Assembly (NCBI GenBank): GCA_041651115.1
Contig: JBAZJY010000005.1
Coordinates: 6,405 to 70,404 of the forward strand
From: Candidatus Omnitrophota bacterium
GTDB lineage: Bacteria > Omnitrophota > Gorgyraeia > Gygaellales > Profunditerraquicolaceae
Length of the DNA: 64,000 bases
Reading direction: 5' to 3'
Positions within the stretch are counted from its first letter, which is position 1. Every line of letters starts with the position of its first letter. Shown one piece after another: positions 8,501 through 38,500 of the stretch. A program made the translations under genes and the position numbers. The notes under the pieces are model-generated. The model was given only the letters and a program-made list of their open reading frames with translations. It was not told the origin of the DNA and did not search any database.

Positions 8501-8510
8501 GGGAGTAAAA

Positions 8511-8834: not shown

Positions 8835-8835
8835 G

Positions 8836-9306: not shown

Positions 9307-9322
9307 CGCGGGTAAAGAAAAG

Positions 9323-9841: not shown

Positions 9842-9897
9842 TGTTGAGCGATCTTAATATGAACAAAAAACAGCAAAACGAAGGAGGTGAAAGAGAA

Positions 9898-10095: not shown

Positions 10096-10114
10096 CGGAT
10101 AAGGAGGTAGTAAA

Positions 10115-10507: not shown

Positions 10508-10548
10508 ACCGTACCGTAGATCAAAAAGTCATAGGGAGGTGAGCAATA

Positions 10549-11004: not shown

Positions 11005-11017
11005 TAAGGTGGAAAAA

Positions 11018-11209: not shown

Positions 11210-11221
11210 GGAGGTAGTAAA

Positions 11222-11581: not shown

Positions 11582-11603
11582 AAAATTAGGGAGGTGAGCA
11601 ATA

Positions 11604-12059: not shown

Positions 12060-12082
12060 GCAGCTAAAAACGGGACAGTGCA

Positions 12083-12764: not shown

Positions 12765-12771
12765 CCATAAA

Positions 12772-13584: not shown

Positions 13585-13585
13585 T

Positions 13586-15082: not shown

Positions 15083-15099
15083 TTAAAAGAGATGCTGCG

Positions 15100-16428
15100 A
15101 TGATCAAGATATCCCGGAATAAAGCGCGTTATGAAAAAGGCCAGATATTCCCGTTTCTTATTGCCGTATTGGTAGTCATTTTGATCGCAATAATGATTAC
15201 GGTCAACCTTGGCCAAGTCGGGATGCTTAAGGTTGATACATCCAATGCGGCAGATGCCGGAGCGCTTGCCGCGGCCAGCACTTTAAGCGGTTATTTGTTG
15301 GGTTTTGGCCTAAAAAGCGATTTTATGGAAGCGCATATGATCACTACCGAAATCTGGGCGGTGATTAACTTTCTGGTGCATTGCGGGGATGGGCCTTATG
15401 GCTGGATAGTCGGACTGGTCCTGGCGCTTATCACCCATATCGCCGGCATGATCAAGAACTTCATAGAATATTTTATCGCGCTCACCGAAGGTAAAATGGC
15501 TTGGGGCCAGGCGAAAAAAACTGCTTTTCAGTATGCTTTTCAAAACGCCGGGGTAGATGAGGTGCGGCCGACTTTCCGGCAGTTCCTGGAGGGCGTATAT
15601 GGGATTTCCGGCGATGAAATAAACGATGTTTCGCCGGCAGACATGGCGCATTACTACAATGTTTATTCCATTGGCGATGATCCCAATAACGCCGGCTTAA
15701 GAAGCCTGATAAAGCAATATACGCAAACCGGATTTAACAAATATATGGAAGAAGCCAGGTATTGGAGATGGGGAAAGATCGCGCCGTGGGAAGGGACTTT
15801 TCCGCCGCGCGTGACTTCCGGTTACGGGTGGAATGATGATGGCACAAACGTCTGTACGGGCAGTAATGATTGCAGGGTTAATGAAGGCGAAGCGTATAAA
15901 AATTACGAAAACTGGGTAGAAGTTGAAATAATGGGTAACATAATGTATCCCCTTGATATATACAGCCCGCTTGCCGAACTTTTTGAAGCGGCCAGGGACC
16001 GGATCCTTGATGCGATTGAAGATGCAGATATGTGGGGCTGGGTAGAAGATATAGCCGATTTCGTCGTCAATCTGATATTCGGAATTACTGCCGGATCTAC
16101 GCAATTTACTTTTCCCGCCGGCTTGGAAATGAGCCCCATAGTGCCCAATACAAGACAAAATCCCATGCATGTCTGGGTCAGGCGCTACAAGAAGAATAAA
16201 GATATTGGACTATGGAATTTTGATTATGGAACCAGCGAATCGTATGCCCAGGGACGCGCTTTTGGCGAAAGAGGAACTGAAGATATTACGCCTGCATTAA
16301 GCGGCCAGATATCGGGATTTATAACCCAATGGATTGACAGCGGAGATAAGCCGGAAGTAGATGACATGTATGACATGTTTGATACCAGTCAGCATTTGTT
16401 TGAAACCGAAATTTCATACGCGAGGTAG
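15100..16428 (+). CDS. TadG-like pilus assembly protein
   Basis: KGQIFPFLIAVLVVILIAIMITVNLGQVGMLKVDTSNAADAGALAAASTL matches the TadE/G-like N-terminal signature (hydrophobic helix, then VD...A.DAAALAAA). Confidence 0.6.
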   Translation: MIKISRNKARYEKGQIFPFLIAVLVVILIAIMITVNLGQVGMLKVDTSNAADAGALAAASTLSGYLLGFGLKSDFMEAHMITTEIWAVINFLVHCGDGPYGWIVGLVLALITHIAGMIKNFIEYFIALTEGKMAWGQAKKTAFQYAFQNAGVDEVRPTFRQFLEGVYGISGDEINDVSPADMAHYYNVYSIGDDPNNAGLRSLIKQYTQTGFNKYMEEARYWRWGKIAPWEGTFPPRVTSGYGWNDDGTNVCTGSNDCRVNEGEAYKNYENWVEVEIMGNIMYPLDIYSPLAELFEAARDRILDAIEDADMWGWVEDIADFVVNLIFGITAGSTQFTFPAGLEMSPIVPNTRQNPMHVWVRRYKKNKDIGLWNFDYGTSESYAQGRAFGERGTEDITPALSGQISGFITQWIDSGDKPEVDDMYDMFDTSQHLFETEISYAR

Positions 16429-16432
16429 AACT

Positions 16433-17284
16433 ATGCTTAGACAAAAGAATATCTTGATTGCGGCAGTTGTTTTAGCATTGATCACGGTATTTTGCCTGCC
16501 CGGTTTTGCGCAAGCCAATGTTGATTTTGAAGTGCCGGTGCCCGAAGGCAGTAGTTTAGTAGAAGATAGGGATATTGCTATGGGGGGCAGGCAGATAAAG
16601 ATAAAGGTTTATACTGCTCCCGTGAGCAGCGCAGCCATCCTGGGCTATTACCGGAGTTTTTTCAGCCAACAGGGGTTCCAGAAAATCCTGGATAAACCCG
16701 AACCGGAGTTAAACAAGCACCTCTTGCGTTTTAAGCAAGGTGATGCGGTAGTTGCCATCGGTGTCTTGAATAAGCCCGGGATAAACAAGATAGTGATTGC
16801 CCGTTATTTGCAGAAAGCCGGCCAGCTTCCTCCGGAAAAATCCGGCGTTTCTTTGACGGAGCTTTTTTCTATGGTGCCGAAAAAAGAGGCTGCAGGCAAG
16901 GATTTGGCAGCTGTGCCCCGCCCGGATAATAGTATCAGGGCGGCTTTTACGGAGCGCGGCGATCATACGCAGCTTTTGTATATCGCGCCGATGAACGCAG
17001 TATCCGTAGTTGATTTTTACAAGAAAGAAATGGAAGCCCAGGGATGGGAGTTAAAAAGGGAGGTTCTCGGCTCTGAAGGCCTGGGTGCTTACGGGATAGC
17101 TAAAGAAGACGCCTTTACCCCGGAAAATCCTATTCTTGAAAGGCCGGGCCATAAGCAGGTCATCCAGGAGATGTCTATACTTGAGTTCAGCGCTGATTTT
17201 GGCGACGCGGAAATAACTATTTTACCGGATCCCAGCCAGGCCCCTGCTGGTTCCGTAATTAAAATTGAGTACGATGAAAAATGA
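16433..17284 (+). CDS. secreted hypothetical protein with an internally duplicated ~110-aa domain
   Basis: GAGG RBS. Signal peptide MLRQKNILIAAVVLALITVFCLPGFAQA. Two similar halves (ILGYYRSFFSQQGFQKI and VVDFYKKEMEAQGWEL). No recognised family. Confidence 0.5.
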   Translation: MLRQKNILIAAVVLALITVFCLPGFAQANVDFEVPVPEGSSLVEDRDIAMGGRQIKIKVYTAPVSSAAILGYYRSFFSQQGFQKILDKPEPELNKHLLRFKQGDAVVAIGVLNKPGINKIVIARYLQKAGQLPPEKSGVSLTELFSMVPKKEAAGKDLAAVPRPDNSIRAAFTERGDHTQLLYIAPMNAVSVVDFYKKEMEAQGWELKREVLGSEGLGAYGIAKEDAFTPENPILERPGHKQVIQEMSILEFSADFGDAEITILPDPSQAPAGSVIKIEYDEK

Positions 17285-17601
17285 AAAAAAATAGCCAAAC
17301 AATATTGGATTATGTTATACTACTGCTGGTTGTGATTACTGCCTTGATGATCATGGGGCATTATGTGAGGAACAGCCTCTCCGGAAAAATGCGCGAAGGC
17401 GCAGATGTATTTTCGCAGGGAGAAGTTTACAGCAACGCGAATACGCACATAACGGAGAACACCATAACGAACGAGGGCGGGTCTATAGATATTGACCTTA
17501 GCGGCCTTGAAGGTCTTAATCTTACCGGCCTTGATTTCACTTGGCTCAACAACTGGACTTTATTTGATGTTGATTTTGGCGGCTGCCCGTTTTGTTGGTA
17601 A
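17281..17601 (+). CDS. Flp-type pilin paralog P13
   Basis: ATGA overlap with the upstream stop. MKKNSQTILDY plus VILLLVVITALMIMG. C-terminal GGCPFCW. Confidence 0.55.
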   Translation: MKKNSQTILDYVILLLVVITALMIMGHYVRNSLSGKMREGADVFSQGEVYSNANTHITENTITNEGGSIDIDLSGLEGLNLTGLDFTWLNNWTLFDVDFGGCPFCW

Positions 17602-17637
17602 GTAAGTCATAAGCCGGAAAATTAAAAAAACGGAATA

Positions 17638-18495
17638 ATGGTATTTGTCGGCATACTCATAGCTGTTTTTCTTGCCCTCTATATGCTTTCCGATTATTTT
17701 ATGGAAAGCGTCATCCCTTCCCTGACCGGTTATTACGGTGAAATTCAATTAAGGCGCACCGGTAAACTCAGGGGCCAACTTGAAGAATCATTTATTTTCT
17801 GGGAAAAAAAGCGGCTGATGTTGATTTCGCTTGCCCCGCTTATCTTCGGCGGTATATCTTTTCTTTTACTCCGCCACGTCCTTGCCGCGGCTGCCGGGTT
17901 TTTACTGGGGTTTGCTTTCCCGGGATTTATGGTCAAAATGGCGTATCAGGCAAGGATGAAAAAGTTCCAGGGCCAGCTGGTTGATTCGTTGATCATGCTT
18001 TCTTCGTCGCTGAAAGCGGGTTTGAGCTTTATCCAGGCAATAGAGGTTATGTGCGAAGAAATGCCCGCTCCCATATCACAGGAATTCAAGCTGGTTTTGA
18101 AAGAAAACCGCTGGGGCTTAAACCTTGAAGAATCCCTAAAAAGACTACGTAAGCGCGTGCCGCTTGAAGAGGTCAATCTCCTGGTCAGTTCTATCCTCAT
18201 TGCCCGTGAATCAGGCGGCGAGCTGCCCAAGGTCCTTATGCGGTTGACAACTACTATACGCGATAACATTAAATTAAAAGAAAAGATCGCCACTCTCACA
18301 TTGCAGGGAAGGCTGCAGGGCTTAATCATGATGTTTTTGCCTATCGGCTTTAGCTATTTTGTTTCCAAGCAGAACCCCGAGCATTTTGTGGTAATGTGGC
18401 AGAATGCCACGGGCAGGATGTTCATTATGATTGCCGTAGGGCTGCAGATCGTCGGCATGGTCTTGATAAAGAAGATAAGCACAATACGCATATGA
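17638..18495 (+). CDS. tadB: Tad pilus inner-membrane platform protein TadB (T2SS F-type domain)
   Basis: Polytopic. T2SSF-type domain (SLKAGLSFIQAIEVMCEE...VNLLVSSILIARESGGELPKVLMRL). Confidence 0.75.
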   Translation: MVFVGILIAVFLALYMLSDYFMESVIPSLTGYYGEIQLRRTGKLRGQLEESFIFWEKKRLMLISLAPLIFGGISFLLLRHVLAAAAGFLLGFAFPGFMVKMAYQARMKKFQGQLVDSLIMLSSSLKAGLSFIQAIEVMCEEMPAPISQEFKLVLKENRWGLNLEESLKRLRKRVPLEEVNLLVSSILIARESGGELPKVLMRLTTTIRDNIKLKEKIATLTLQGRLQGLIMMFLPIGFSYFVSKQNPEHFVVMWQNATGRMFIMIAVGLQIVGMVLIKKISTIRI

Positions 18496-19373
18496 TGCTC
18501 TATATAATTCTCGCCCTAATCGCAAGTTCAGTATTCCTAATTGTTTACGGAATTTTTGAAGCAAGGCAGGTGCCCCGGCTGCAGTTATTTAATAATATGC
18601 CGCGCCAGAAAAAAGGCGGCTTTGAAAGTATTAAAAAGTCAGCGGCTTACGGCCTGTTGTTGAGGCAAACCGGATTTATTACCCGGCCGTTATTAAAGCT
18701 GCCGTATTTTGTGAACTTGCAGGCGCAGGCAGACGTATTAAAGATAAACATTGACCTCCCCGCGTTTATTCTATTAAAGTTGATCGTGGGCGTCATTGTT
18801 TCTTTCTTAGTCTTTAGATTGCTGTCTCCGACCTATGCCATAATCGGCCTTTTGGTGGGGTTTTTCGTGCCGGATTTTTTTATGTGGAACAAAGTCAAAG
18901 AAAAGAAAGACGCCATTGTCAGGATCTTTCCGGAAACAGTTGACCTTTTGGACATGTGTATTAATGCCGGAGCGGATTTCCTTTCCGCTATTAAATGGGT
19001 GGTGGAAAAAAGCGACCCCAATCCATTTATTGAGCAGCTTTCTATTGTCTTAAGCGAGATCCAGGTTGGTAAAACCCGTTCGCAGGCGCTCAAGGACTTG
19101 GGCAACAGGCTCAAACTTCCCGATATCAGTAGTTTTGTGCGCACGATAATCCAATCGGAAAGAATGGGTACTTCCATTGAAGAGGCGTTCGGCAACATGT
19201 CCCAAGATACGCGCGAAAAGCGCTTCCAGTCCGGCGAGAGATATGCCATTAAGGCTTCGCTGAAGATCCTTTTCCCCTTGCTTTTTTGTATCCTGCCTGC
19301 TATATTAATCGTAGTTGCCGGCCCGGTTATTATTAAATTTACCTCGGGCGAGCTGATCCCCAAGAATTTCTAA
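18492..19373 (+). CDS. tadC: Tad pilus inner-membrane platform protein TadC (T2SS F-type domain)
   Basis: ATGA overlap with the tadB stop. T2SSF domain (TVDLLDMCINAGADFLSAIKWVV...SFVRTIIQSERMGTSIEEAF). TM helices at both ends. Confidence 0.75.
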   Translation: MMLYIILALIASSVFLIVYGIFEARQVPRLQLFNNMPRQKKGGFESIKKSAAYGLLLRQTGFITRPLLKLPYFVNLQAQADVLKINIDLPAFILLKLIVGVIVSFLVFRLLSPTYAIIGLLVGFFVPDFFMWNKVKEKKDAIVRIFPETVDLLDMCINAGADFLSAIKWVVEKSDPNPFIEQLSIVLSEIQVGKTRSQALKDLGNRLKLPDISSFVRTIIQSERMGTSIEEAFGNMSQDTREKRFQSGERYAIKASLKILFPLLFCILPAILIVVAGPVIIKFTSGELIPKNF

Positions 19374-20633: not shown

Positions 20634-21260
20634 TCGTTAGGTTTAGTAATTAGGTTATGGTAAGGAAGCCGGTATGGTAGTTAGGTTATGGTTAAGTATA
20701 AAACCCGGATCGTTTTTTGAATTTAGTCCAAGACATTGACAGCTTATATAATTGCCTGCCCGAGATATCATATGAAGTAATAAGCTCATCGCATAGTTGC
20801 ATATTTATGGCATAGGAATATATATCTTTACACTGATTTAGACTCACTACCGTTTCATTACATTCTCCCATAGCATCATCAAGGTATTTTTGAAACCCCA
20901 TTTTTTGGTGTCTCTTGGCATAGCCTTCAGCTATCAATCTTGGGATAGCCTTACATGATCTCGCCAGTTGGTCTTTTAAATCATATTTTTCGTTATCAGG
21001 TAATCTCGGGATAATTTTTGTCATTACCTCTATGGCAGCTTTATAAGTGTTTTGGTACACATTCAAATCACAAAAACTTCTAATTGGTTTTTTAATTTCC
21101 ATAATTTGGTCCTATTTCTTCAGCTAGACTTAGAATACGATCGCCTTCTGTAATAATAGACGAATAAACAGAATAAATCTAACTCAAAAACATGTCATTT
21201 TAACCTAACCTTAACCCTTTAAACTATACTGGTTTCTTTACCATAACCTTAAACATAACC
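20634..21260. mobile_element. IR-flanked cassette: arms of the hairpin-repeat family enclosing a four-helix-bundle gene
   Basis: Left arm 20634-20696 (..ggttatggtaaggaagccggtatggtagttaggttatggttaag). Right arm 21199-21260 (aacctaaccttaacc..aaactatactgg..ccataaccttaaacataacc) is its reverse complement. In copies 1, 2 and 5 the arms abut across a short loop. Here they are ~500 bp apart with a gene between. Confidence 0.5.
20692..21102 (-). CDS. four-helix-bundle protein (23S rRNA intervening-sequence / Avd-like family)
   Basis: SFCDLNVYQNTYKAAIEVMTKIIPRLPDNEKYDLKDQLARSCKAIPRLIAEGYAKRHQKMGFQKYLDDAMGECNETVVSL matches the conserved F-x-DL-x-VWQ / IAEG signature of this family. Only convincing minus-strand gene in the window. 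Confidence 0.7.
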   Translation of the reverse strand: MEIKKPIRSFCDLNVYQNTYKAAIEVMTKIIPRLPDNEKYDLKDQLARSCKAIPRLIAEGYAKRHQKMGFQKYLDDAMGECNETVVSLNQCKDIYSYAINMQLCDELITSYDISGRQLYKLSMSWTKFKKRSGFYT

Positions 21261-21561: not shown

Positions 21562-24500
21562 ATGATGAATCCAACCTCATTACTTGAAAGAAGAAAAATG
21601 ACAAAGGCCGGATTTTTTACTTTCGGGTTTCTTAGAAAACAAAAATGGCTTAGCGTGATCCTGGCGCTGGCCTTTTTGCTTAATACTATTTCACCTGCTT
21701 TTGCGCGCGAGGGAAATTCCGGCAGACGGACTTCTCTTGAAATGTACGGCCTCGGCGCATTAGCCGGCTCCGCTTTAGGCGCCTCTATCCTTATCGGTTA
21801 TGAAACCGGCCAATGGTGGGGCGTTGCCGCTGCCGCAGCCGCAAATATGGCAAGCGACCTTACCGGCCTTGTGATGTATTACTATTTTTATGAGAGCTAC
21901 GGGGAAACCGCAACAGTATTCGGAAAAGAACTTAAATTCGGCAATGTAGAAATTAGCAAAGGAATGCTTTATTCAATGTATGCCGGAACGATCACCGGCG
22001 CGCTTGTTGGTATTGTGGGAGGCCTGGCCTCTGGTGCTTCCAGCGGCGCAAGTTCAAGCCTTGAAAGCGGCGCAAGTTCAGGCATTGAGAGTGCTGCTGC
22101 TAGCGCCGGGGAAGGTGCTGTGTCAGGCGCGGCTACCGGTGCTGCGTCAGGCGCGACATCTGGTGCTGTAGCAGGCGCAGCCAATAGCGTGATTACAGCT
22201 ATTGTGAATGCCGCAAAAGCCCTCTGGCAAGCTATCGTGAATGCAGCCAAAGCCATTTGGACAGCGCTTAAAAACGCTTGGCAAGCTATCGTGAAATTTT
22301 TTGATCGTCCTCTTAAGGAAATATTAAAGTCAGTCGGAAAAGCCCTTTGGGAGAACGTATTAAAGCCGATTTTAGAGCCTATCTGGAAGAATCTCATTAA
22401 GCCTATCTGGAACTTCATTACGCACCCCATTAGGACAATAAAGGATTTTTTTGCTAGAATCGCGAAAACTGCGGCAGACAACAATATTAATTGGTTAAGA
22501 GCAGCAATAAGAGTTGTGTATAAGCTTGATAAGCTTAAACCCGGCAGCGTTGCCAATCCTTATATCCGTTACGGAGCAGAACGCTCTTTTGGAGCTGCGT
22601 TTGCGCATTTAGTAGGCGACCTGGTTATTAATACGGCAAAGCTGTTTTTCAGAGAAACAATAAAGCAGAACCTTGAGAAAGGATTTGAGATCACGATTGG
22701 TAAAGGTAAGAATAAGAAAACGCTCATTGCAATTGACGAGCAAGATGAAACTATCGCCGAGATCGCTGCCGATATCGCAACCATATATTTTTCAGCATGT
22801 ATCACTCCGACAGTAAGGATACTTTTGGGCAACTTAATGCACGTGTATGGAGGCAAGGGCAAGTTTGTTCTTGATAACCAGGGCGGATACTTAAGTAAGG
22901 AAGGGGAAGGCTTTATTGATGAGGGCGTAACCTATGAAATTGACGCAGTAGAGATGAATTCTCAGGAAATCAACAGGCGCCTGGAAGCCAAGCAAATTAA
23001 GGGTGACGCAATGGTGAAAGTTACCCGTGACGGAAAAACCGAAGAGATAAAGGCTGAAGCGGTAGCCAATATGTTAAACGGCAAGAATTACACCGTTACC
23101 CTGCAAGCCGACGTAACTTTAAACGGCGAAACCGTGAAAGCCGGCACAAAGATAGCCGTTAATGCGACAGAGTTTACTAACCTTTGGCAGCAGGAAGGCG
23201 TGATCAACAAATCCGGTTCCGTAGATGTCACTAATACAGATGGAGTAACGCAGCAGATCAGCGCGGAGGCGGCATACGCAGGCGCAGTTAATATTTTGAG
23301 CGCCAGTTATACTGCCGGGATTACCATAGCCGCCCACGACTATTTCCAGATGCGGGAAAGTGAAACGATCAAAGAAGGCAGCACGCCTGTGCGCGTTACT
23401 TCTGCCGACAAAAAAAATCAGGTTGATACTACTGCCAAAGAATTAGACGGCGTTTTTAACGATACCTATGTGCAGCTGGAAATGGCCCGGCGGCTGGAAA
23501 ATAAAATCATTACTTTTCAAGACGCTGCCACCGGCGAACTGCATGAAATGAAAATGAGCGAGGTTGCCCGGGAAATAGCCCCGAATAAAGACGGCACAGT
23601 AGGCGTACAAAACGATAACGGCACTTATAGCGTAGTAATAAACGGCAAGGAAGTTATAGTTGACGCTGCCACATCTGCTCAACTGCACAGCAATCTTGTT
23701 GCCTACGCTACTATCATGGCAAGCAGTGCCCATCAGACCGCGCTCGCCTTAACCGGTGGACTCTTAAACGACATTCACGGCAATCCCGTAAGCAGTAAAC
23801 CGCTTAAGGCAGGCTTGCAGACCATGCGCAGCATCGGCCTGCATCCTCTTGTCGGCGCGGGAGTAAAAATACTTGCTTTGAAATTGATGAAGTACCGCAC
23901 GCATTACGGCGATGAAAGCGGCCGCGTTGCGGAAAACGCGAAAAAAATGGCAATTGCTGATTTCTTCGGCAATCTTGCTTCGTCAGCAGTGGCCAATTCC
24001 TCGCGTTTCAATACTTGGTATGCCGGCACAGATGAAAATCCATATGTGCAAAGGGGCGACTCCGGTGAATATTTAGGCAGGGAATATGCCCAGCGAATGG
24101 GCAAAGAATTTGTTACACAAACCGCCCTATTGGCCAATGAATTAGCTTGGGCAAATTATTGCAAGAAAAAAGACATTACTCCCGATGCGTTAGATGAAGT
24201 AAGGCATCTGGCAGCAGGTTCGCTTGTTAGCGGCTTGGTAGATGCAATTTACCGCCGCGATCCCGGCACCGTAGAGAAAAAAGACCAGGTGCTGGTAGAA
24301 ACCAGCGGTATGGCATCTGGCAACGGAGAGCTTATGTTTGTAGACCGCGACAGCCTTACCGAGAGCACATATGACAAAGATACCTTTTTATTCAAGGTTA
24401 ACGGCGAGGACCTAAGAGGTAAAATCAGAACACTTGATAATAAAGAAAAAGTATTCCTTAATGAAGATGACGTTCTCTTTGTCGGCGCCAAGGCGCCCGA

Positions 24501-27500
24501 CGACAACAAGAAGTGGTCTGCGGTAACATGGCAGACGAATAACGCTTCTGTAAAAACAGGCGGGCAGGTATCTTATAATGTTACATACGACGTGTCTTCC
24601 CGGCTTAATGATCCTCAATTCCAGAGCAGGCAGAATCTGACCGCTGGCAAGTTTGTAAAGAGCGTGGCGCAGGATTTCAATAACCATTTTATACAGGCGG
24701 CCGCGCGCAGCAGCCTGTATTTATCTCCGATGTTTACGCCCGGCACAGGCCCGGCAGGATTTTTGGCGCAGCAGCAGATGCAGGACCAGTGGATCCAGCA
24801 CATCCAAGGCATGGCGCAAGGCACTGGCCCGGGAATGCTGATGGCCAACCGCCTTGGCGGCAACATGCGCTATTATGCCAATATGAACGTTGCCGATTCG
24901 CTCGGCGCGGCAATCACCAATCGCTTTATGCGCCAGGAGCTGCGTTCTTATGCTACCTTCATGACTACGCAAGAAAAACTCCAGTATTTGCAGGTTACAG
25001 AAGAGAAAAATCTGAAACGGAAAGTAGAATTATTGGGTAGCCTGCGGGCTTTTAATAAAGAATATGGCGGTGACATTAATAAATTGAATGCAGACATAGA
25101 GCAGGCGAATATAGATCTGGCAACAGCGGAACAGGCCGGGCGCGTTGATGAGGTCAATACCATGCGCAAAGCGCTGGAGACGATGTACGGCATGGTAATA
25201 GCTGCAGATGAAGTTTTAAAGAAAGCTTACAGCCTGCAAATCGTCCGCGCTAACGAAGTTTATAGCCTTCCCGCAGAGGCGCAGTCAAGAATCTTTAATG
25301 ATTTAATGCCGGAAGTAATAGACGGCCTGCAAGCGGACGTAGATGCCTCTGCTTATAAGATTGGGGCCATGGAAAGGGCTAAGGGTTCGCTGGGCATACT
25401 CTCCAGCGTGCCTATCCTCGGCGCAATGATCCAGTCAGCCGTGCTTTCTAACCTGGCGACATCAACCGGCCAGGCGCAAGGCATAAATGATTTTATTATC
25501 GGCGGTATAGTTGATTATAATGTTGACCGCACTTTTGATATCTATGCGCCGATGAGCGGCTATACGGCAGGGGCGCTGGAAAGCACGGTAGATAACAGCG
25601 CGAAAACAACGCAGATGAGTGAAAAAGATAAACAGGCTTTCCGTTCGCTTTTAAAAGATCCCGAGCTCAGGAAGCGCAGCGAGCTTAGAAGCAATTATTC
25701 AATGTCGGTTGCCGGGGTTTATCAGGGCAGTGAAAGCTACGCCAATACTCCGCTTTTGAATGCAAGCGGCATCTCGCAGGAGGTAAGGTCAACAAGAATG
25801 GAGCTTAGGGAAGCCGAGACCGGCGGTAAGGCGCTGGTAGTAACAGATTCTACAAAAATAGATGCCATTAACGTGATTAAAGAAATGAGAAAAAATAACC
25901 CGAATGTTGAGGCATTTACTTATATACCGGAAGATAAGGATAAAACACCGGAGCAGGTTGAAACTGCGCTATATGAATTAAAGACCGGCAGGGTGTTGTT
26001 CTCCGATTATGGCCTGACCAGTCGCACCACAGTTGATCAGTTCGGCCGCGCCGTAGAAACCAGGCATTATGCCCCCGACTTTGTTTTTAGCGATATCGGG
26101 AGTGAATGGCAAACCGGCATAGAGCAGGATGTGATCACCCGGCATTATTACGGGCCGTTTGGCCACGCGGTTTCCATTACTACCGACTATACGCAGATAG
26201 GGGTTCCTGATGCGGATAACTGGCCGGGAGCAAAAGATTGGACTATCGGCATGGGCAAGGTATGGAATGATCTGGCCGCGGAATTCAAGGTTGTCGGCGT
26301 AACGCCCGAGCAGCTTGCCGGAAAATTAGGCATTGAACTCACTGGCCAGGAAAGCGCAGAAGAGCTGCAGGTTAAATTCACCAGCTTTCTGCAGGAAAAG
26401 CTCAAAGAAGGGCCTGATGCGATTGAGAAAATTGATGCAGATATTAAAACTTTTGCCGGTAGCTTAAATGTTGAGCCGAAGAATATCGGCGGCGATTTCA
26501 GCAATTATATTCCTAAGATCAAAAAATATGTTTATGCTACAGATCCCAAGACAGGAGAATACCGTACTGATAAATCCGGCCGCTTAATCCCTATCGGCAG
26601 CGTGCTTAACGCAAAGGCGGCGCAAACTCAGCGTTTCCTTGCTGCAGCGCAAAATTTAAGGGAGGGCAAACCTATAGAATATTCATACGCAGGTAAGGAG
26701 GATTATCAGGTAACCGCCCTCAAGGTTCCTCAAGAAGAAATTGATAAGAGCAGGGCTCTTGTGACCCAGGACATGCTTGAAGAATTTGCCGGCTTTGCAA
26801 CAGACGTATACGGTAAAAAGGTCAGGGCAAAGGATATCAACATGAATACGCCCTGGGGCGGCATCCTTGCGTATATGGCGGTTAACCCGCAGCCGGATGG
26901 CCGTAAATGGTCAGAGCTGACAACTGATGAAAAGCAGGACATCTTTGCGGGTGTAACTGCATGGAGGCTTCTAACCTACGGATTATACGCAGAGGATCCG
27001 AACGTAAAGCAAACCATTCCTAATAATCAAAGCACTTTGACCCTTTTCTTAGGCAGCGGCGCTGATCAGATCCGCGGCGCCAACTATTTATACGTGCCTG
27101 CGATCGCCGGGCAGAAAATGGAACCTTTGAAAACTACCCTAACCGGGCCCGAAGGCTATTATCAGCCGGTTTCTGTCGGCCCGAATTACAGCTACGATAT
27201 CAGTATTTATTCTACCGGAGAGGGCAAGACCCCGTATTCCGGGCCAAGCCACAGGGCCAGCGTCAGCGATATTAATTCCGGCCCCGCGCTCAATGCCGCT
27301 GCGCAGTACACGCTTCCGACAGATGCCGTTGAGCGGCAATTGCAGCAATTGGTTTATAACTTTGCAGCTACCGATTTTAAAGGCGCTGACCAGCGCGCAG
27401 AATTGATCGGCTTTATGAAAAATGAACTGGGTATAGACGAAGAAGATGCTATTGCAAAAGTAGATAGGTTAAATTCAAGAGAATATGGTAGAGAATTTTT

Positions 27501-29109
27501 GGAAGGCATACAGGAAAAAGTAGATGAATCCAGGATCAACCTTGATAAGATCACGCAGGCGCCGCTTACGCTTACTGCTACTACTGCGCAAACAGAAACT
27601 CCAAAACTAAAAACTCAGGCTCTTCCCAATATGTCTTTTCCGGATTTAGATAGAACTAAATGGGCAATGCAAAGGCTTGAGGGCCAGGATTTAGAAGTAT
27701 ATACCGCGGTGCAGAATAAACAACAGGAATTAAATAGCAATTTAAACCGCGACCTGTCTAATGTCAAACAAATGCAGTTCTTTGAATATAAGGATATTGG
27801 CGGCAGGACACTGATGCTTCCGACATGGGGCATGAGTATGGGTTCTGTTTTGCAGACGCGGGATGATGCTATGGCAGCTGCCATAAATCAGGAAGAATTA
27901 AGGTTCAGCAAGCTCATGGCCTATAATTATGACAGGCAAGGCATAGAAACTTCCATTGACAAAGGCTACAAGGAAGCGTTGGTTAGCGGCAATGATTTCC
28001 TTACTAACATGTTCAAAGAAACCAAGACCCTTCCCATAAACGGCCATAGCTTAGTAATGGAGCCTAATAATAATGGCATGTTGGGAGCTTTTTACGATCG
28101 TTCAACTACGGTTTATGTGCCGGGAGAATATGGCAGCTATGACGCCGCACTTCCCGAGGGTACCTACAAGTATGACGGAAGGGGTTCTGCGGATGTTATT
28201 CAGAGAAGCCAATTAAGGCTAAAAAATTCAGAAGAAGCAAAATTGGTCCCGTTAGACGGCAGGTCTACTTCTACGAACACGGCCGCGGCGCCGGTAATTA
28301 ATAATCCGCCGGTACAAACAGCGCCTGCGCCGGTTACAGGCCCTGACCTGCAGTCGCAGGAAGCAGAGCTTAAACCGCTTAAGCCTATCGTAAAACCTAT
28401 ACCAAACAATATTGATCAATCAATCCCGCTGTCCCGGGCATATCCGCAGCAGCAACCTGTAAGTGTTAATACAACCGTGCCTGAATTGACCGACGAGCCG
28501 GCAGTTGAAACAATAAAACAGGAAACTGTAACCGTACCCCAATATGACCTAAAAGATTACATCCAGCTTGAAACAGCTGTTTTGAATATGGCCCCTACCC
28601 TAGGCGTAGGCGACATCGGCTTCTTATCCCAATGCGCTCAATATGGAACAATCGATAGCGATAATATCAATAAGATCGTGCCTTTGTTTGCAGAAGCAAG
28701 AAAAAATGGCGCGATTGATGATATGGGGTTAGTATACCTAGAGCAGTTTATGTCTATTAAAAAGATACCAATAGTACCAGAGGGCTCTGTTCGAGAAGGT
28801 GACGTTACAGCACTTGCTTTGGCAGAAGAAGAAGCTCTCAAGCAAGGAAATGTAGTAGAGATCCCTCCTATCATAACTTCGGAAAATTCCGAGGCATTTT
28901 TTACCACAATAGGCAATCAAGATTTTGTCAATAGATTAGGGAGGAATAACGAAGCTATATATGGATTCTACTCGGCTTTGAATAAACTATCGGATAGCGG
29001 TAAGGTATCTCCAGACAATCTGTTGAAAGTCACGGATTATTTACGCGATCATCCAGACGAGATTGAGTATTCCCGCAGAACCGGTGAGCTAAGAGGTTTT
29101 GAGAAATAA
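21562..29109 (+). CDS. giant secreted/surface protein (2,515 aa), function unknown
   Basis: Uninterrupted ORF. N-terminal signal-like segment WLSVILALAFLLNTISPAFA. Gly/Ala/Ser-rich low-complexity block. Trp-containing amphipathic 11-mer repeats (AIVNAAKALWQAIVNAAKAIWTALKNAWQAIV...KPIWKNLIKPIWNF). Pro-rich segment near 28280-28400. No recognised catalytic motif. Confidence 0.7.
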   Translation: MMNPTSLLERRKMTKAGFFTFGFLRKQKWLSVILALAFLLNTISPAFAREGNSGRRTSLEMYGLGALAGSALGASILIGYETGQWWGVAAAAAANMASDLTGLVMYYYFYESYGETATVFGKELKFGNVEISKGMLYSMYAGTITGALVGIVGGLASGASSGASSSLESGASSGIESAAASAGEGAVSGAATGAASGATSGAVAGAANSVITAIVNAAKALWQAIVNAAKAIWTALKNAWQAIVKFFDRPLKEILKSVGKALWENVLKPILEPIWKNLIKPIWNFITHPIRTIKDFFARIAKTAADNNINWLRAAIRVVYKLDKLKPGSVANPYIRYGAERSFGAAFAHLVGDLVINTAKLFFRETIKQNLEKGFEITIGKGKNKKTLIAIDEQDETIAEIAADIATIYFSACITPTVRILLGNLMHVYGGKGKFVLDNQGGYLSKEGEGFIDEGVTYEIDAVEMNSQEINRRLEAKQIKGDAMVKVTRDGKTEEIKAEAVANMLNGKNYTVTLQADVTLNGETVKAGTKIAVNATEFTNLWQQEGVINKSGSVDVTNTDGVTQQISAEAAYAGAVNILSASYTAGITIAAHDYFQMRESETIKEGSTPVRVTSADKKNQVDTTAKELDGVFNDTYVQLEMARRLENKIITFQDAATGELHEMKMSEVAREIAPNKDGTVGVQNDNGTYSVVINGKEVIVDAATSAQLHSNLVAYATIMASSAHQTALALTGGLLNDIHGNPVSSKPLKAGLQTMRSIGLHPLVGAGVKILALKLMKYRTHYGDESGRVAENAKKMAIADFFGNLASSAVANSSRFNTWYAGTDENPYVQRGDSGEYLGREYAQRMGKEFVTQTALLANELAWANYCKKKDITPDALDEVRHLAAGSLVSGLVDAIYRRDPGTVEKKDQVLVETSGMASGNGELMFVDRDSLTESTYDKDTFLFKVNGEDLRGKIRTLDNKEKVFLNEDDVLFVGAKAPDDNKKWSAVTWQTNNASVKTGGQVSYNVTYDVSSRLNDPQFQSRQNLTAGKFVKSVAQDFNNHFIQAAARSSLYLSPMFTPGTGPAGFLAQQQMQDQWIQHIQGMAQGTGPGMLMANRLGGNMRYYANMNVADSLGAAITNRFMRQELRSYATFMTTQEKLQYLQVTEEKNLKRKVELLGSLRAFNKEYGGDINKLNADIEQANIDLATAEQAGRVDEVNTMRKALETMYGMVIAADEVLKKAYSLQIVRANEVYSLPAEAQSRIFNDLMPEVIDGLQADVDASAYKIGAMERAKGSLGILSSVPILGAMIQSAVLSNLATSTGQAQGINDFIIGGIVDYNVDRTFDIYAPMSGYTAGALESTVDNSAKTTQMSEKDKQAFRSLLKDPELRKRSELRSNYSMSVAGVYQGSESYANTPLLNASGISQEVRSTRMELREAETGGKALVVTDSTKIDAINVIKEMRKNNPNVEAFTYIPEDKDKTPEQVETALYELKTGRVLFSDYGLTSRTTVDQFGRAVETRHYAPDFVFSDIGSEWQTGIEQDVITRHYYGPFGHAVSITTDYTQIGVPDADNWPGAKDWTIGMGKVWNDLAAEFKVVGVTPEQLAGKLGIELTGQESAEELQVKFTSFLQEKLKEGPDAIEKIDADIKTFAGSLNVEPKNIGGDFSNYIPKIKKYVYATDPKTGEYRTDKSGRLIPIGSVLNAKAAQTQRFLAAAQNLREGKPIEYSYAGKEDYQVTALKVPQEEIDKSRALVTQDMLEEFAGFATDVYGKKVRAKDINMNTPWGGILAYMAVNPQPDGRKWSELTTDEKQDIFAGVTAWRLLTYGLYAEDPNVKQTIPNNQSTLTLFLGSGADQIRGANYLYVPAIAGQKMEPLKTTLTGPEGYYQPVSVGPNYSYDISIYSTGEGKTPYSGPSHRASVSDINSGPALNAAAQYTLPTDAVERQLQQLVYNFAATDFKGADQRAELIGFMKNELGIDEEDAIAKVDRLNSREYGREFLEGIQEKVDESRINLDKITQAPLTLTATTAQTETPKLKTQALPNMSFPDLDRTKWAMQRLEGQDLEVYTAVQNKQQELNSNLNRDLSNVKQMQFFEYKDIGGRTLMLPTWGMSMGSVLQTRDDAMAAAINQEELRFSKLMAYNYDRQGIETSIDKGYKEALVSGNDFLTNMFKETKTLPINGHSLVMEPNNNGMLGAFYDRSTTVYVPGEYGSYDAALPEGTYKYDGRGSADVIQRSQLRLKNSEEAKLVPLDGRSTSTNTAAAPVINNPPVQTAPAPVTGPDLQSQEAELKPLKPIVKPIPNNIDQSIPLSRAYPQQQPVSVNTTVPELTDEPAVETIKQETVTVPQYDLKDYIQLETAVLNMAPTLGVGDIGFLSQCAQYGTIDSDNINKIVPLFAEARKNGAIDDMGLVYLEQFMSIKKIPIVPEGSVREGDVTALALAEEEALKQGNVVEIPPIITSENSEAFFTTIGNQDFVNRLGRNNEAIYGFYSALNKLSDSGKVSPDNLLKVTDYLRDHPDEIEYSRRTGELRGFEK

Positions 29110-29130
29110 AACTAATAAAAATATTAAATT

Positions 29131-29172
29131 AATGTCCAATCTGAAATAAAATCGCTTATAAATGTCCAATCT
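29131..29172 (+). promoter_or_regulatory. two direct AATGTCCAATCT boxes, 30 bp apart, between the giant genes
   Basis: aatgtccaatctg at 29131 and aatgtccaatcta at 29161, followed by ttggttaagtca and hairpin repeat copy 5. Confidence 0.45.
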
Positions 29173-29198
29173 AAAATAAGAGTCTTAATTCCAATATT

Positions 29199-29321
29199 GG
29201 TTAAGTCATTAGGTTAAGGTTAAGAGGCCAGTATGGTAAATAGGTTATGGTTAAGTGCCAAATAACCTAACCTTAACCCCTAAACCATACCGGCTTCCTG
29301 ACCCTAACCTTAACCTAATTA
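29199..29321. repeat. palindromic hairpin repeat, copy 5
   Basis: ggttaagtcattaggttaaggttaagaggccagtatggtaaataggttatggttaag, loop, then aacctaaccttaacccctaaaccataccggcttcctgaccctaaccttaacc. Confidence 0.8.
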
Positions 29322-29527
29322 CCCTTTTATTACCAATAAGTTTTAGCTCTCCTTAAGAAGAAAACGCTACCAAAAATCACCGACAAAATTCTTGACAACT
29401 ACTATATATATGTTATATTTAGAGTGTCATTCCTGAACAATATTACCGAATAGAAAAATGAAGTTCGGTTTTTATATTGCTACTTAATAATGAGTTTTAA
29501 AAAGTACCGCTAAAACTCACAAAAAAA

Positions 29528-32500
29528 ATGGAAAACCCGGCTAACAAAGCTGAAAGAAAAATGGGGGAAAGGGGGAATTTGTCGGTTCCCCTTTTCTATT
29601 TAGGTACTAATAAGAAACAAGAAAATCTTTCAGCGGTCGTTGATGAGCCACAATTTAAATCCAAGTTCAAAACCTGGATCAGAGTTGTGGCTTTTATTGT
29701 GGTCGCGGTATTCCTGCCGGAGCAGGTAGCGCAGGCAGTAGAATATGATTGGCGCGTGCTCTGGCAGAAGCCGGCGGCAATGGGCAATGCGTTTGCGCCT
29801 GCGTATTTGGCGGACACAAAGAACCTTGATATCCCTATTGCCGTAAGAAACATCCTCAAAGACGTTGCCGGCAAACCGATCACATCAATAAAAATTTCTC
29901 CTACGCTTACAGTTGACCTGCCCAAGCCACTGAATATTTCCAAACAAAGAATTGAAGAGATCTTTAATTGGCTACAGGGCAGGCCTTGCGGTTCCAAGGC
30001 GCTGTATGATCTATTAAGTTATGGCGGCGCCAAGGCAACAGAGCAGGATATTGCCGTATTCGCCCTGACCGTGGATATCTTAAGCGGTACAGTCAAGCCA
30101 GAGGGTAACCCGGAAATAATCAAAAATTCCCTCTACGCCTTAGCTAAAGCTTCCGAATTTTTCGGCGTTAAACTTTATCCGGCCAAGGTTAATAACCAAA
30201 CACCTAACACCCAGCACCTAACACCTTTTATTGTCCACTTGAGCAATGATCACTATGTTCTCGTTACCAACATCACTCCGGAAAAAGTTTATTATATTTC
30301 AAACCACAAAGAAGAATTCATCCCCACGGAGAAATTTAATGCCAGATTCACCGGCTATTGTTTGGTATCTGAGATAAAAGGCAGCCTTGAAGCAATAAGC
30401 GAAGAAGAGGCCAAGAAAATAAAAGGCGCCAGCGATTGGGGCGATAATTATAGCTATGACGCCGGCACTTATGGCTCCAACAGCTATTACACCAACAATT
30501 ATAGCAACAACTACAATTACAATAATTATAATTCCGGCTATACCGGATTTGATTACCGCCGCAATAATGCTAATCTTAATCTTAACCCGTTCGGCGTTAA
30601 CTTGACGTTAAACAACGGCTCAAGGCAGCAAGCCATACAGCAGGTCTGGGGTTTTGAAACCCGCTATAACCAGCCCAACACAAAAAATTATGCCAGTTTT
30701 TATACTAGCCTTAATAAGCCGATAACCGGCTATTATAAAGATAGCGGCAAGGGCCTTGTCTTAGACAAAGGCAAATTTGGCAATACCTGGCTTACTCCGG
30801 GAGGCAGCTCCATTTCTACCCCGATCACCGGTATTAACAATTGGCAGATCGGCAGCAATAGCGGGGCGGTAGCGTATAAGACAGCGAGCAAGGATTTTGC
30901 TAAATTTGACGACCGGATGACGGTTTGGGTAGGCTCAACGCCAAGCGCAGTATTTGCCCAGAGTTTGAATTTAAATAAAGAATCGTTCTACAAGAGTAAT
31001 TTTGAGACCGGCACAAATCTGCCCGTATGGCATTTTACGCCGATGATGAATACTTTCTTTAACCCGGAAGAGATCGGCAAGGCAGGCGCAGGTTATACTC
31101 CGCCGATCGGCGCTCCTTCGCCCGTAGCTTCACAGTTTTCCATTAATCCCGTAAAAGCAAGTAACGGCAGCGCCATAGGCGTAAAAGACGGATTTTTTGC
31201 CATGGGCGGCCTGAAAGATAAGCCATTCCAGATCAACCTTACCAATGCCGGTGTAACTATCAGGCCGGGCAGCACCATCGGGGTGAGTACAGATTATAAA
31301 AGTGTAGCCGGAAGCACAGCCGCATTTAATAAATATTTTATTCCCGGTCAGCAATTCAATCTTGAGTCCGGCGTTGAATCCCAATTCCATTTCCAACCGC
31401 AAGTGCAGTCAGGCAGATCCTTGGTGTTACAGCCGGGTAAAGGCGTTTTAAGCATGGCCAATACCGGCCGCGATGACGTGCGCTTTGTCGGCACCGGATA
31501 TCTGCAGGGTTTTGATAAGACGTACAGCGCTGCCATATTTACCCGCGAATTAAAAAAGGATAATTGGAAAATTGATTTTAAAGATGAGATGCCGACTTTA
31601 AGCAGCTTGAATAAAGCGGCGAAATCAGCCGGAGAATTACGCAGCCGCACCAGTGAAGGCTTTGAAAGAATAGCCAAGATCCAGAATTGGCATGGTCAGG
31701 ATGATGTCATTACGGGTTTTAGGGCGCAGGGCGACTGGGTCAGGCCGATCACAACTTTGCCCGGAGCTGCTGGTGAAGATAATAAGCGCTATGACAGCTG
31801 GGTAGGCGGCACAGGCACGATCGGCAACCTTGGTAAGGAAACCTTAGAGTTGCATAAGGCCCAGTTCAATATGGGCGTTACCAAAGACGGCCTTGATTTT
31901 ACGCCTACACTCTGGGGTAAATGGAATATCCGCGATAACGCGGTAAAGATCCAGGGTTTGAATTTCCGCGGAGAAAAACTCTTCAATGCCAAAGACGGAT
32001 TTTATTCCGACAGAAAATTAGATGTAGATATTTACGAGATCCTTGACCGCGACAGCCATGGCATTATTACCCGTGCCCCGCTTGTATCCGCAGCGAAATT
32101 AGCCACCTTTACTCCGAAGAGCGGATGGAAAGAGCTGCCGCGTTCGTCTGATACGCAATTCAAGTCAATAACTCAATATACACAGTCTCCTGATACCGGC
32201 GAACTGCAAACAATTAACCGTGCCCTTGGAACCTTGACTAAAGATAATAAGATCCTTATTGATAAAATTGTTTATAGCGCAGTGGAAGTTCCGGAAGCGC
32301 AACTGGGCGCGGACAAGGCAAGCCAGGCTGGCCTGAACGAAAAGCACCGCATTGCAGCTTGGAACACGAGCCTGTTCGCAGACAAGAAATATACATATTT
32401 TTCAGAAAGCGGAGATACTAAACTTCAGCACGCGGCGAACTTAACCTTAAAAATGACTGCGGATAAAAAATATCTCCAGGGCACAGGCCTGGATTATTCG

Positions 32501-35500: not shown

Positions 35501-38500
35501 AATAAAGAAGACCTCCGCAATATCAACAGCCTTTTTGTAGGACTAAAAGGTCGCATCAAAAACGGAACCTATATACATCAAGCGGAGTATTTAAATGCGT
35601 TGGCGTGTTCTCAAGCCAGGGCTTTTGAATACCTGCTTATTAATACTGACTTAGGCGCAAAAGGCATTATTCCTCTGGGTATCAGAGATAAGGCAGTTAC
35701 CGGAGGTAAAATAAATACTATCGCCACAGCCACGGTCTTGATTGCCGGCGGCACCGTTGCCAGCTTCTACAGCGCGGGCGCTGCCAGCCCCATAGCTGCT
35801 GCGGGCTTGACCATGCTTGCCGGAGCCCTCGGCGCTACCTCCTCGGAAGTTTTCAAATACGGCTTCAGAGGCGAACATCTTACGTTTAAAGAGGGAGCTA
35901 CTTCTTTTGTTTTTTCCGCGGCTCCCGGAGCATTAGGAAGATTAGGGGCCGGAGTTAAAGGCGCCGGAACGATAAAGACCATCGCCGATATCGCCGTTAA
36001 GGGAACCAGAAGCGGCTATGTTATTTATAATGCTTCTAACGCGCTGAATATCTACACTACAGGTAAACCGCTTAATTTTGCCCAAAGTGCAGGAGTTTTA
36101 GCGGCAAATTATCTTTTTACCGCGCCGTCTGCAATGGGAGGGATTTTCGGCAGCACCGGCAAAATAGCTACTAAGTATACCCAATTGATAACTAAGGTAG
36201 GTTTTGGTAGTCCCCGGCTTGGTAGGGTGATCGTTAACACGGCAACCAACCAGATTTTATTGCAAGGTACTTCGTTAGTAACCACGGGTAAATGGGCTGA
36301 CAGGAAGGTTACCTTGGGAGTTATTGGAGCCAGCATATTACCTTCAGTTTATATGCGCAGCAGCGGTATTGGCATTCTTCCGGGCATGGCGATTACCACT
36401 GCCGATACGGTTAAATATAAGATTACCCAAAAGAAAGACAAAGACGGTATTGGCCAGCACTTGACTTGGGGACAGATTAGTTTGATCGGCGGCGCGGCAA
36501 TGGTTCCGGGAATTTTAAAGAGAGGATTTACCGCATTAGAATCCAGACTTGGCACTATGACAGGAAAATTTGCCATACCCAAGATACCTGCCTTAGTAAC
36601 CGGGAAAACCGCGTCTTATGTTGCAAAGGCCGGGTTACATTCTCTTGCCGGCGCAGCGCTTTATCCTGCTTTTACTAAGGATAGATATACCGTAAAGAAT
36701 ATCGGTATTGGAGCGCTCGTAGGCTTAGGCGTTTGGGGCCTGCGTTTAGTCAATAACTGGGCAGGCAAAAAGCTTGAATCTTTGATCAGCCGCGCTACAA
36801 AAGCAAATGCCGAGCGCATAGATGTGGCAAATAGGCTGCTGAATAAGGTTGGCGTTCAGACAGCTGAAGAGGTAATTAAAGTACCGACAAACGCAAAAAG
36901 CTTTTTTGTAAATCAGGCTACATTCCTTACTACTTCTACTGTTTTTGCTTATTTAGAACAGAAAGACCCGCTCTACAATTCTTTTGGCACTGCCAGCGCA
37001 ATCAGCTCCGTACTTCTTAATCCGGGGAGAAATATACTTTCTACCATTTCCAACCTCGGCAGATATCTTGACAATAGAAAAGGCCTTGCCGATAAGGAAG
37101 AGGTAGAGGCGATCCTGGGCGATCGGTGGCAGGAATTCTTTAAAGAGGACAAAGATCTAGGAGGCAAATACGTCAGATTTAAAGAGAGCAGGTTTAAAGA
37201 CGCATTAAAAGATTATAATCTTGATTCCGACACTAAGCGTAAACTACGCACTCTTTGGACAAAGTCGGAAAGCGCATTATCTGCCCGGCTTGCATACATA
37301 CAAGGAAAAGAAAGAAACACTTTTAATGAACTTCTACGCAATGAAGTCGGCGGCATACCGTCGGCAATCCTTGCTTTTGGTTATTACGGTTTAGATACTT
37401 ATCTGCAGGCTTTTAGCGGCAGCTATACCATAAAGGCAGCAGCTAATTTCAAACAGACCGCGCAGGATTTCTTCTCTTTTGCCGATAAGACCAGAGAGGT
37501 GATTACCGAGATCCGGCAGACCTATGAGCTTCCCGACGATAAATGGGTGGAGGTTGGCATGCTTTTAGGAAGCGTGATGGGCGCAAAAAGAGGATATAGC
37601 GCCCTTGGCAATAAATTTAAAGGCATGGCAGCTGCTGATAAGAGCAAGTTCCTGCAGTTTGTTTCCAAGACCCATATTAATGCCGCTAATCTTACTTTTT
37701 TAAATACCGGTTTTGCCGTAGTTGCTCCTCTGTTGAATAAAGGCGCTGATTCAGAAGACTACTTAAGACAGATTTTTTACACTGCTTATGCTAAGGATTC
37801 GGTAATGGAGGGCGCAATGGGAGCAAGCTTGGTCTGGAATAGTTTTGCCGGCGCAGCGAATTTATTAACCAAGACCGGCGCAGGCAAGTCCATTAAAACT
37901 TATATGGATGGCCAGTATAAATTCAGGGTCATTGATACGCCTGTTACCGTCGGAAAGTCCACTACTCTCCTTAAGCCGGTGATCAAGGTTGGCGTCAAAT
38001 TTGGCACACCCGCGGCGCTAGTCGGCGTTGGCACAGGCACGTATCTTTTAGCCACAGAAAATAAATTTGTTGAAGAACGTCTTGATCCTACGGTACGCGC
38101 AGTGGTTGCTAATTTAGGCTTGATCACTGCTGCGGCAGGCTTAAGGCTTTTGACAAAAAGCATCAGCAATGTTAAGCAATTTAAGCAGTTAATGCGCGAA
38201 GGAAAGATTATGAGGCCTGAGAGGGTTGTATATAAACATAACGTTAAGGACTTATCGGCAATTAAATATAAACCCGGATCAGCTAACTGGTTTTTCGGCA
38301 CAGGCAATGAACATCTGCAAGGATGGAAAGCCTTCGGCCACCAGATGAAATATAACGCCATCTGGACCGGCGTAGGCACTGGCGCTGGTTTGGCGCTGCA
38401 TAGGATAAATGTTGCCCGCGGCAAAGCAGATAAGGATGACCGGCTGCTTTATATGGTATTGGGCGGATTATCAGGTATGGGTGCCAAGAATCTACCGGGC

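Follow-up and report, generated by a model that had tools for sequence, protein, structure and literature searches.

A C39-type cysteine peptidase domain with an adjoining conserved double-glycine-type motif at the head of a giant Omnitrophota open reading frame

What the conserved head of a giant bacterial protein does is the question raised by a 64-kb stretch of contig JBAZJY010000005.1 (assembly GCA_041651115.1) from a Candidatus Omnitrophota bacterium; the whole of this stretch is called the window here. The element in question is the N-terminus of an open reading frame (ORF) of more than 11,480 amino acids (aa), giant ORF 2. The giant proteins of Omnitrophota have almost no annotated parts, and the C39 head is their most conserved piece. 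An original prediction from the letters of the window placed a papain-like or C39-type cysteine peptidase behind a membrane anchor at this N-terminus and proposed a self-processing or leader-cleaving module. The N-terminus of giant ORF 2 is a C39-type cysteine peptidase domain, on which a hidden Markov model (HMM) search, profile-profile alignment and fold search agree. The domain itself is already annotated and published and is not a discovery. Several close homologs are named "cysteine peptidase family C39 domain-containing protein" by NCBI, and N-terminal C39 domains have been reported on Omnitrophota giant proteins known as "Archaeovorins" (West-Roberts et al. 2023, 10.1101/2023.11.21.568195), so the domain is a further member of a described kind. 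The added observation is a conserved double-glycine-type site directly after the domain, which offers a precise cleavage-site hypothesis. The self-processing idea thereby gains specific though indirect support.

The Pfam model Peptidase_C39 (PF03412) matches giant ORF 2 with 35.4 bits (E = 1.1e-8), against a gathering cut-off of 22. The alignment spans profile positions 46-128 of 133, which is the His/Asp half only. Nine of nine divergent relatives tested also pass PF03412 (30-54 bits), in two cases with an alignment over profile positions 11-132. The Pfam models C39_2, C70 and transglutaminase-like, which the original prediction had listed beside Peptidase_C39 as candidate families, gave no match at E<=1 in aa 1-380 or aa 1-1000. 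No ABC_membrane or ABC_tran match was found in the 11,480 aa, unlike in AMS/PCAT transporters, where ABC transmembrane and nucleotide-binding domains are fused to the C39 domain; the NCBIfam PCAT equivalogs score 11-14 bits on giant ORF 2 against cut-offs of 500-853.

Two AlphaFold2 models (aa 1-290 and aa 75-340) were made, with a predicted local distance difference test (pLDDT) score of 80-95 in the core. Foldseek searches of the Protein Data Bank (PDB) with both models returned a C39 domain as every top match, including LahT150, the Vibrio C39-like domain 3b79, PCAT1 and ComA. The entries 6mpz, 7n87, 4ry2, 3k8u and 5xe9 were matched with a probability of 1.0 and target-normalised template-modelling (TM) scores of 0.65-0.73, and LahT150 (6mpz) had an E-value of about 4e-6. 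In both models the papain-like alpha+beta fold is superposable on solved C39 domains. Both models also matched 4g54, the papain-like periplasmic domain of EpsAB, a type II secretion assembly factor (probability 1.0, TM 0.33), and this domain sets a precedent for a C39-like fold on the periplasmic side of a secretin system. An hhalign comparison of the family core, built from 150 sequences, with the ComA peptidase domain (PEP; the sequence used is 100% identical to PDB 8hf4) gave 96% probability over 132 columns. So deep a profile was required because smaller searches missed the Cys half: phmmer and small-profile searches of PDB sequences and an hhalign run with 29 sequences aligned the His half of the domain only.

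The segment NWLQGRPCGSKALYDLLSYGG (aa 136-156, nucleotides (nt) 29966-30028) holds Cys143 (nt 29987-29989), and the segment HLSNDHYVLVTNI (aa 226-238, nt 30236-30274) holds His231 (nt 30251-30253); both are read on the forward strand in the frame that begins at ATG 29561. The predicted Cys and His are therefore present, but they are 88 residues apart and not about 80. Cys143, His231 and Ser247 are paired by hhalign with Cys17, His96 and Asp112 of ComA, respectively, and column 13 of the Pfam model holds the Cys of two distant relatives together with ComA Cys17. His231 stands in an H-[YF]-V-V motif. In one AlphaFold2 model a helix begins at residue 145, two positions beyond Cys143, in the arrangement that a papain-like nucleophile should have. 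Neither Cys143 nor His231 varies in the family (150/150 sequences). The whole module contains only four invariant columns, namely Cys143, Asp172, His231 and Gly289. This conserved module extends from about 29651 (signal peptide) to 30430, so the span of 29860-30330 given at first was too short.

The third catalytic residue is less clear. The position of ComA Asp112 and LahT Asp117 is occupied by Ser247 (nt 30299-30301), which is adjoined by Asn248. Across the 150 sequences this position contains D in 102, E in 22, Y in 9, S in 7 and other residues in 10. The absence of a third catalytic residue had been named as a result that would count against the prediction, and the outcome is divided: the window protein has Ser, whereas 83% of the family has Asp or Glu. 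Asp172 (nt 30074-30076; 150/150) lies inside a family-specific insertion absent from ComA and may be the real partner of His231. The Gln noted four residues before Cys143 is present as Gln139, but this position is not conserved (K 73, Q 24 and R 20 of 150) and is not the oxyanion-hole equivalent; Gln139 was rejected as the oxyanion residue on this ground. At Cys-6, the position of ComA Gln11, Gln occurs in 1 of 146 sequences, and no conserved Gln was found at -12 to -1 before the Cys across the family. Trp137 is invariant and stands at Cys-6 in the window protein. It was considered as a transglutaminase-style oxyanion donor and downgraded, given its variable spacing and a low-confidence alignment to ComA Gln11. 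Between family members the distance from this Trp to the Cys differs (6, 11 or 12 residues), and Trp137 is probably structural for this reason. The role of the Gln in LahT150 has itself been questioned (PMC6363468). The C39 domain of the window may be catalytically competent, although Ser247 and the lack of the Gln weaken this view.

The last strand of the C39 domain is followed by a short tether and a motif, LEAISEEEAKKIKGA, with the properties of a double-glycine leader (Table 1). Double-glycine leaders end in Gly-Gly, Gly-Ala or Gly-Ser and have the consensus Leu(-12)-X3-Glu(-8)-Leu(-7) (PMC6363468). The core of the motif (aa 279-290) is I-S-E-E-E-A-K-K-I-K-G-A, which agrees with the leader consensus at -12, -8, -4, -2 and -1. 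Position -2 is Gly289 (nt 30425-30427), which is present in 150/150 relatives. Position -1 is A in 101, S in 17 and G in 13 (131 in total), position -4 is I or V in all 150, and position -12 is L, V or I in 149, with a single Met. Position -8 is E in 98 and Q in 19, position -7 is A in 102 and S in 23, and position -11 is S or T in 90. No indels occur in the register from -12 to -2 in the 150 sequences, in contrast to the tether before it, which has 10 residues here and 8-29 across the family. The alignment was built with a coverage filter on relatives, and possible bias at Gly289 was checked. The relatives filtered out either stop before the motif or retain it, with the exception of P0106, which diverges after the domain; seven further relatives dropped by the filter keep [IV]-W-G-[SN].

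The motif also marks the end of conservation and of predicted order. Conservation falls from 2.4 to 0.9 bits/column right after residue 290, and pLDDT falls from >90 in the motif to <50 from aa 293. The motif is modelled as a strand, then a two-turn helix from -10 to -5, a beta-bridge at -3 and an extended P3-P1 segment. In the LahT150 complex the leader forms a two-turn helix from -4 to -11 with P3-P1 extended, and the side chains of -4, -7 and -12 lie in a hydrophobic groove (PMC6363468). A position-specific scoring matrix (PSSM) built without the window sequence scores the motif at 28.3 bits; the next best site in giant ORF 2 reaches 0.1 bits, and the shuffle maximum is 4.1+-3.1 bits. No second site above 8 bits was found by this matrix in any of the six frames of the window. 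Many-site polyprotein processing was rejected, as only one motif is present in the visible 11,480 aa, and the arrangement suggests a single-site "leader protease" and not a polyprotein processor. A loose double-glycine-leader regular expression also fits LTWGQISLIGGA (aa 2301-2312, nt 36461-36496). This match is compatible with chance (about 0.06 expected per ORF from composition) and scores near zero by the family matrix.

Table 1. Features of the window around the head of giant ORF 2 and in its neighbourhood (positions in nt of the window)
Feature	Position	Strand	Residues	Basis or remark
Tad/Flp-type pilus cluster	1554-19373	+		RcpC, secretin, TadZ-TadA fusion, Flp-like pilins, TadG-like gene, TadB, TadC; upstream of giant ORF 2
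DUF192 gene	6261-6608	+		After the TadZ-TadA gene
23S rRNA-intervening-sequence protein gene (PF05635)	20692-21102	-		Between the Tad cluster and giant gene 1
Giant gene 1	21562-29109		2,515 aa	Secreted protein, after the Tad cluster; without Pfam domains
Sigma-70-like promoter, TTGACA-16 nt-TATATT	29392-29419	+		Consensus match only, 11/12, TG-extended; about 140 nt before the start codon
Giant ORF 2	29561-64000	+	>11,480 aa	ATG at 29561; stop-free to the window end
Signal-peptide-like segment	29651-29737	+	31-59	Positive-inside and -3/-1 rules
N-terminal extension of the module	29738-29965	+	60-135	Conserved, family-specific; holds a helix ending in invariant Trp137-Leu138
C39 peptidase core	29966-30370	+	136-270	Pfam, profile alignment, fold search
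Tether start	30371-30385	+	269-278 (full tether)	From the last strand (Leu268) to position -12; poorly conserved
Double-glycine-leader-like motif	30386-30430	+	276-290	Family alignment, PSSM, AlphaFold2
Tyr/Asn-rich low-complexity tract	30449-30562	+	297-334	Translation; pLDDT <50 over aa 293-336

The reading favoured, with moderate confidence, is that of a leader protease which is exported and then releases itself from the giant protein. The first 290 residues would form a self-contained cassette, in which a Sec-type signal peptide and the family-specific extension precede the C39 peptidase, itself joined by a flexible tether to a leader helix that carries a Gly-Ala site. The N-terminus would be exported across the inner membrane first, after which the peptidase would bind its own tethered leader helix and take up in its groove positions -12 and -4, which are hydrophobic, and -7, which is small. 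The cut would follow Gly289-Ala290, in cis or between neighbouring copies, and the proposed scissile bond lies between Ala290 and Ser291 (between nt 30430 and 30431). Cleavage would free an extracytoplasmic part of about 5,000 residues from the head, which consists of the signal peptide or anchor and the peptidase. The disordered Tyr/Asn-rich tract would become the new N-terminus. This tract had been noticed in the original prediction at 30470-30560, and its presence holds with the bounds revised as in Table 1.

Several points weigh against self-cleavage at this site. The copy in the window could be slow or inactive, because the canonical Asp is replaced by Ser247 (S in 7/150) and the oxyanion Gln is missing family-wide. 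Position -7 is Ala and not Leu, and about 11% of relatives carry N, D or K at -1. The NCBIfam leader-peptide HMMs gave no significant match on ten family motifs (best E = 0.12). Structural needs alone could keep a Gly invariant where a helix ends. The relative P0118 has internal C39 copies (its second and third) without the motif. The known C39 domains are cytoplasmic, and autoprocessing of the CdiA-like protein StbD needs reducing conditions (PMC6363468; 10.64898/2026.05.07.723447), which makes a thiol protease of the periplasm unusual.

An alternative that is unlikely, though the likeliest of three considered, is a trans-acting peptidase, which would cleave other double-glycine proteins of the cell or of prey while the head is retained or shed. 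The adjacent motif would then be an autoinhibitory pseudo-substrate or a structural C-terminal helix. Cleavage of other substrates was raised by West-Roberts et al. (10.1101/2023.11.21.568195), and the motif-less copies in P0118, the non-canonical third triad residue and Gln, and an invariant Gly that may be a helix cap fit such an activity. The absence of any second motif-like site from giant ORF 2 and from every frame of the window speaks against it. Giant gene 1 was considered as a trans substrate and rejected, since its best PSSM score (4.7 bits) is within noise. The full leader register behind a variable tether and the position of the motif at the exact end of conservation and order likewise speak against a trans-acting peptidase.

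The location of the domain depends on the segment before it. The original prediction described a membrane anchor, but the hydrophobic core is no longer than 11 residues and Pro and an A-x-A site come after it, for which reason a cleavable Sec signal peptide is more likely than an anchor. The segment consists of a basic n-region (QFKSKFKTWIR), the core VVAFIVVAVFL, the residues PEQVAQA and A-x-A before V60, with a net charge of +4 before and -2 after the core. A-x-A or S-x-A is conserved in relatives, and even the distant ones have small residues at -3 and -1. With this Sec anatomy the C39 domain would be placed outside the cytoplasm, presumably in the periplasm. The signal-peptide segment is as conserved as the active site (2.8-3.3 bits/column in the 150 sequences). 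Sec signals are seldom so conserved, which hints at a partner dedicated to recognising the segment. Over nt 29651-29770 (aa 31-70) the conservation is 2.6-3.3 bits/column, with the patterns F-[KR]-S-x-F-K-x-W..., VF[LV]PEQ-x-[AS]-[QW]-A and x-x-Y-[DN]-[WP]. The sequence "AQAVEY" behind the hydrophobic core was also considered as a Flp/pilin-like site and rejected, because it lacks a Gly at -1, is preceded and not followed by the hydrophobic stretch, and has a Glu that distant relatives do not keep. NCBIfam gave no match to a KxYKxGKxW-type or any other named signal.

Self-cleavage could also take place in the cytoplasm, before or during handover to an exporter in a PCAT-like manner, with the hydrophobic segment not acting as a Sec signal. 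The cytoplasm, a reducing compartment, is where every characterised C39 peptidase acts (PMC6363468; 10.64898/2026.05.07.723447), and the exceptional conservation of the N-terminal segment would suit a specific partner. This alternative is improbable in view of the basic n-region, short core, Pro and conserved small-x-small site, which are typical of signal peptides, of the lack of any ABC-transporter domain in the 11,480 aa, and of the residues that follow: no strong membrane segment was found in the next approximately 5,000 residues, up to a cluster of such segments that begins at aa 5221.

Highly improbable is a non-catalytic docking or chaperone domain like the HlyB-type C39-like domain (CLD), holding an unfolded N-terminus during secretion, which would agree with the matches to 3b79 and 4g54, the missing Asp of the window protein and the missing Gln of the family, but CLDs are without the catalytic Cys and the domain is not a CLD because its catalytic Cys is present and, like the His, invariant in a protein otherwise almost Cys-free (19 of 11,480 aa, 0.17%).

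The preferred reading, an exported protease that releases itself, has parallels in several known systems. The peptidase domains of AMS/PCAT transporters (ComA, LahT150 and PCAT1; MEROPS C39) have the same fold, Cys, His and Pfam family, and their substrates carry the same signal register, with hydrophobic residues at -12 and -4, Glu at -8, Gly at -2 and G, A or S at -1 (PMC6363468). Unlike these, the Omnitrophota head has no ABC transporter, carries peptidase and substrate site on one polypeptide and is predicted to be extracytoplasmic. It also differs in having no oxyanion Gln, Ser in place of Asp, two family-specific insertions (one with Asp172) and a 75-residue N-terminal extension. The C39 domain of StbD autoprocesses in cis at a Gly-Gly site and frees itself from its tether by a cut after Gly-Gly in the adjacent linker (10.64898/2026.05.07.723447), which is a direct precedent for cis autoprocessing by a C39 domain. 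StbD-CT and Cpe1 toxins (PDB 8ssk) were matched in both fold searches, and there, as here, the C39 domain is part of a very large exported protein. The StbD site is upstream of a C-terminal toxin domain and without a long leader helix, whereas the site described here is downstream of an N-terminal domain. StbD is accompanied by an immunity protein and has topoisomerase targets, whereas no immunity gene was seen here.

The closest functional analogy is provided by viral leader proteases. Lpro of foot-and-mouth disease virus (FMDV) and Npro of pestiviruses are N-terminal proteases that release themselves from a long polypeptide by one cut at their own C-terminus. Their lineage is unrelated and their cellular context different, so that the likeness is one of analogy only. 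The pestivirus Npro has been described (PMC3677099). The HlyB-type CLDs have the same fold and are likewise linked to the secretion of very large proteins, but they are non-cleaving, whereas Cys and His are invariant here. The Archaeovorin C39 heads belong to the same phylum and Pfam family as the head of giant ORF 2, and they too open a giant ORF close to a predicted signal peptide; the difference from those reports is the one conserved site directly after the domain, with no further sites. A double-glycine site is named neither by West-Roberts et al. nor in the 2026 preprint with the PF03412 architecture cluster (10.64898/2026.06.07.730766). No mention of a double-glycine-type site after the C39 domain was found in open-access papers and bioRxiv.

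The invariant Gly-[Ala/Ser/Gly] site and the Cys/His pair narrow the published suggestion that the domain "might cleave the giant protein" to one bond, and self-cleavage thereby becomes testable on a fragment of 230-280 residues. Self-release would predict a defined neo-N-terminus, which is searchable in existing Velamenicoccus proteomics. If true, it would place a C39 peptidase outside an ABC transporter, acting on its own polypeptide and probably outside the cytoplasm. The subject bears on the export, anchoring and maturation of bacterial proteins that are tens of thousands of residues long.

The module is widespread in the phylum. A word-indexed search found 46 close homologs with 50-65% identity, nearly all from Omnitrophota. 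An exhaustive profile search found 619 cluster representatives (50% identity) that match the module, 176 of them at E<=1e-30. The module is the extreme N-terminus of proteins of up to 7,821 aa, most of which are cut by contig ends. In GTDB species genomes 109 loci encode the module, and all 80 of those listed are Omnitrophota-type metagenome-assembled genomes. For 74 of 81 modules no stop interrupts the frame before the fetched DNA runs out, at up to 3,333 aa. In P0118 (3,237 aa) three internal C39 modules were identified (aa 606-805, 1638-1793 and 1860-2002), and only the first is followed by the Gly-Ala motif. In a related 307-kb contig (L001, positions 10001-11800) a 480-aa module ORF and a 14,858-aa ORF form one reading frame with a single in-frame stop, for which reason a module split from the giant ORF was rejected. 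This stop could be an assembly error, a mutation or a site of read-through.

The Tad cluster of the window is syntenic with the C39-headed giant gene in related genomes. Among 47 loci (from L001-L082) with at least 8 kb of upstream DNA, same-strand TadB/TadC homologs are located upstream in 38, at a median distance of 2.6 kb from the module. Tad complexes and giant ORFs are both traits of the phylum (Seymour et al. 2023), and a PF03412 architecture cluster and Tad cassettes beside giant genes were listed in a 2026 preprint (10.64898/2026.06.07.730766). The head might act as a dedicated export and hand-over cassette that passes the N-termini of giant Omnitrophota surface proteins to the Tad-like secretin/pilus machinery encoded alongside and then excises itself, although this is quite doubtful. 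If true, it would constitute a hitherto undescribed maturation and secretion route for proteins of 10,000-150,000 residues.

Within the Tad cluster, at least eight small ORFs on the forward strand (8499-12409) carry Flp/TadE-type leaders ("G|QS-x-x-EY", then a hydrophobic helix). These include two near-identical pairs and one ORF with a GGNTGGDT repeat tract, and the ORFs at 8728-9306 and 9176-9841 have Cys-rich C-termini.

The only Pfam matches in giant ORF 2 are the C39 head and a RelA_SpoT nucleotidyltransferase domain (aa 7217-7345, nt 51209-51595, 57.6 bits). The latter lies downstream of a cluster of about 17 hydrophobic segments at aa 5221-6935. A unit "LTAAAMLVLVP" occurs three times, about 57 aa apart, at aa 7939-8072 (about nt 53375-53776), with one of the few Cys residues of the protein about 27 aa before each copy. 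The intergenic region before giant ORF 2 (29110-29560) contains, ahead of the promoter-like site, a 22-nt direct repeat at 29128 and 29158. The sequence CCTAACCTTAACC is repeated at 29266 and 29303 in the same region, which also holds an 18-nt inverted repeat (29205/29305).

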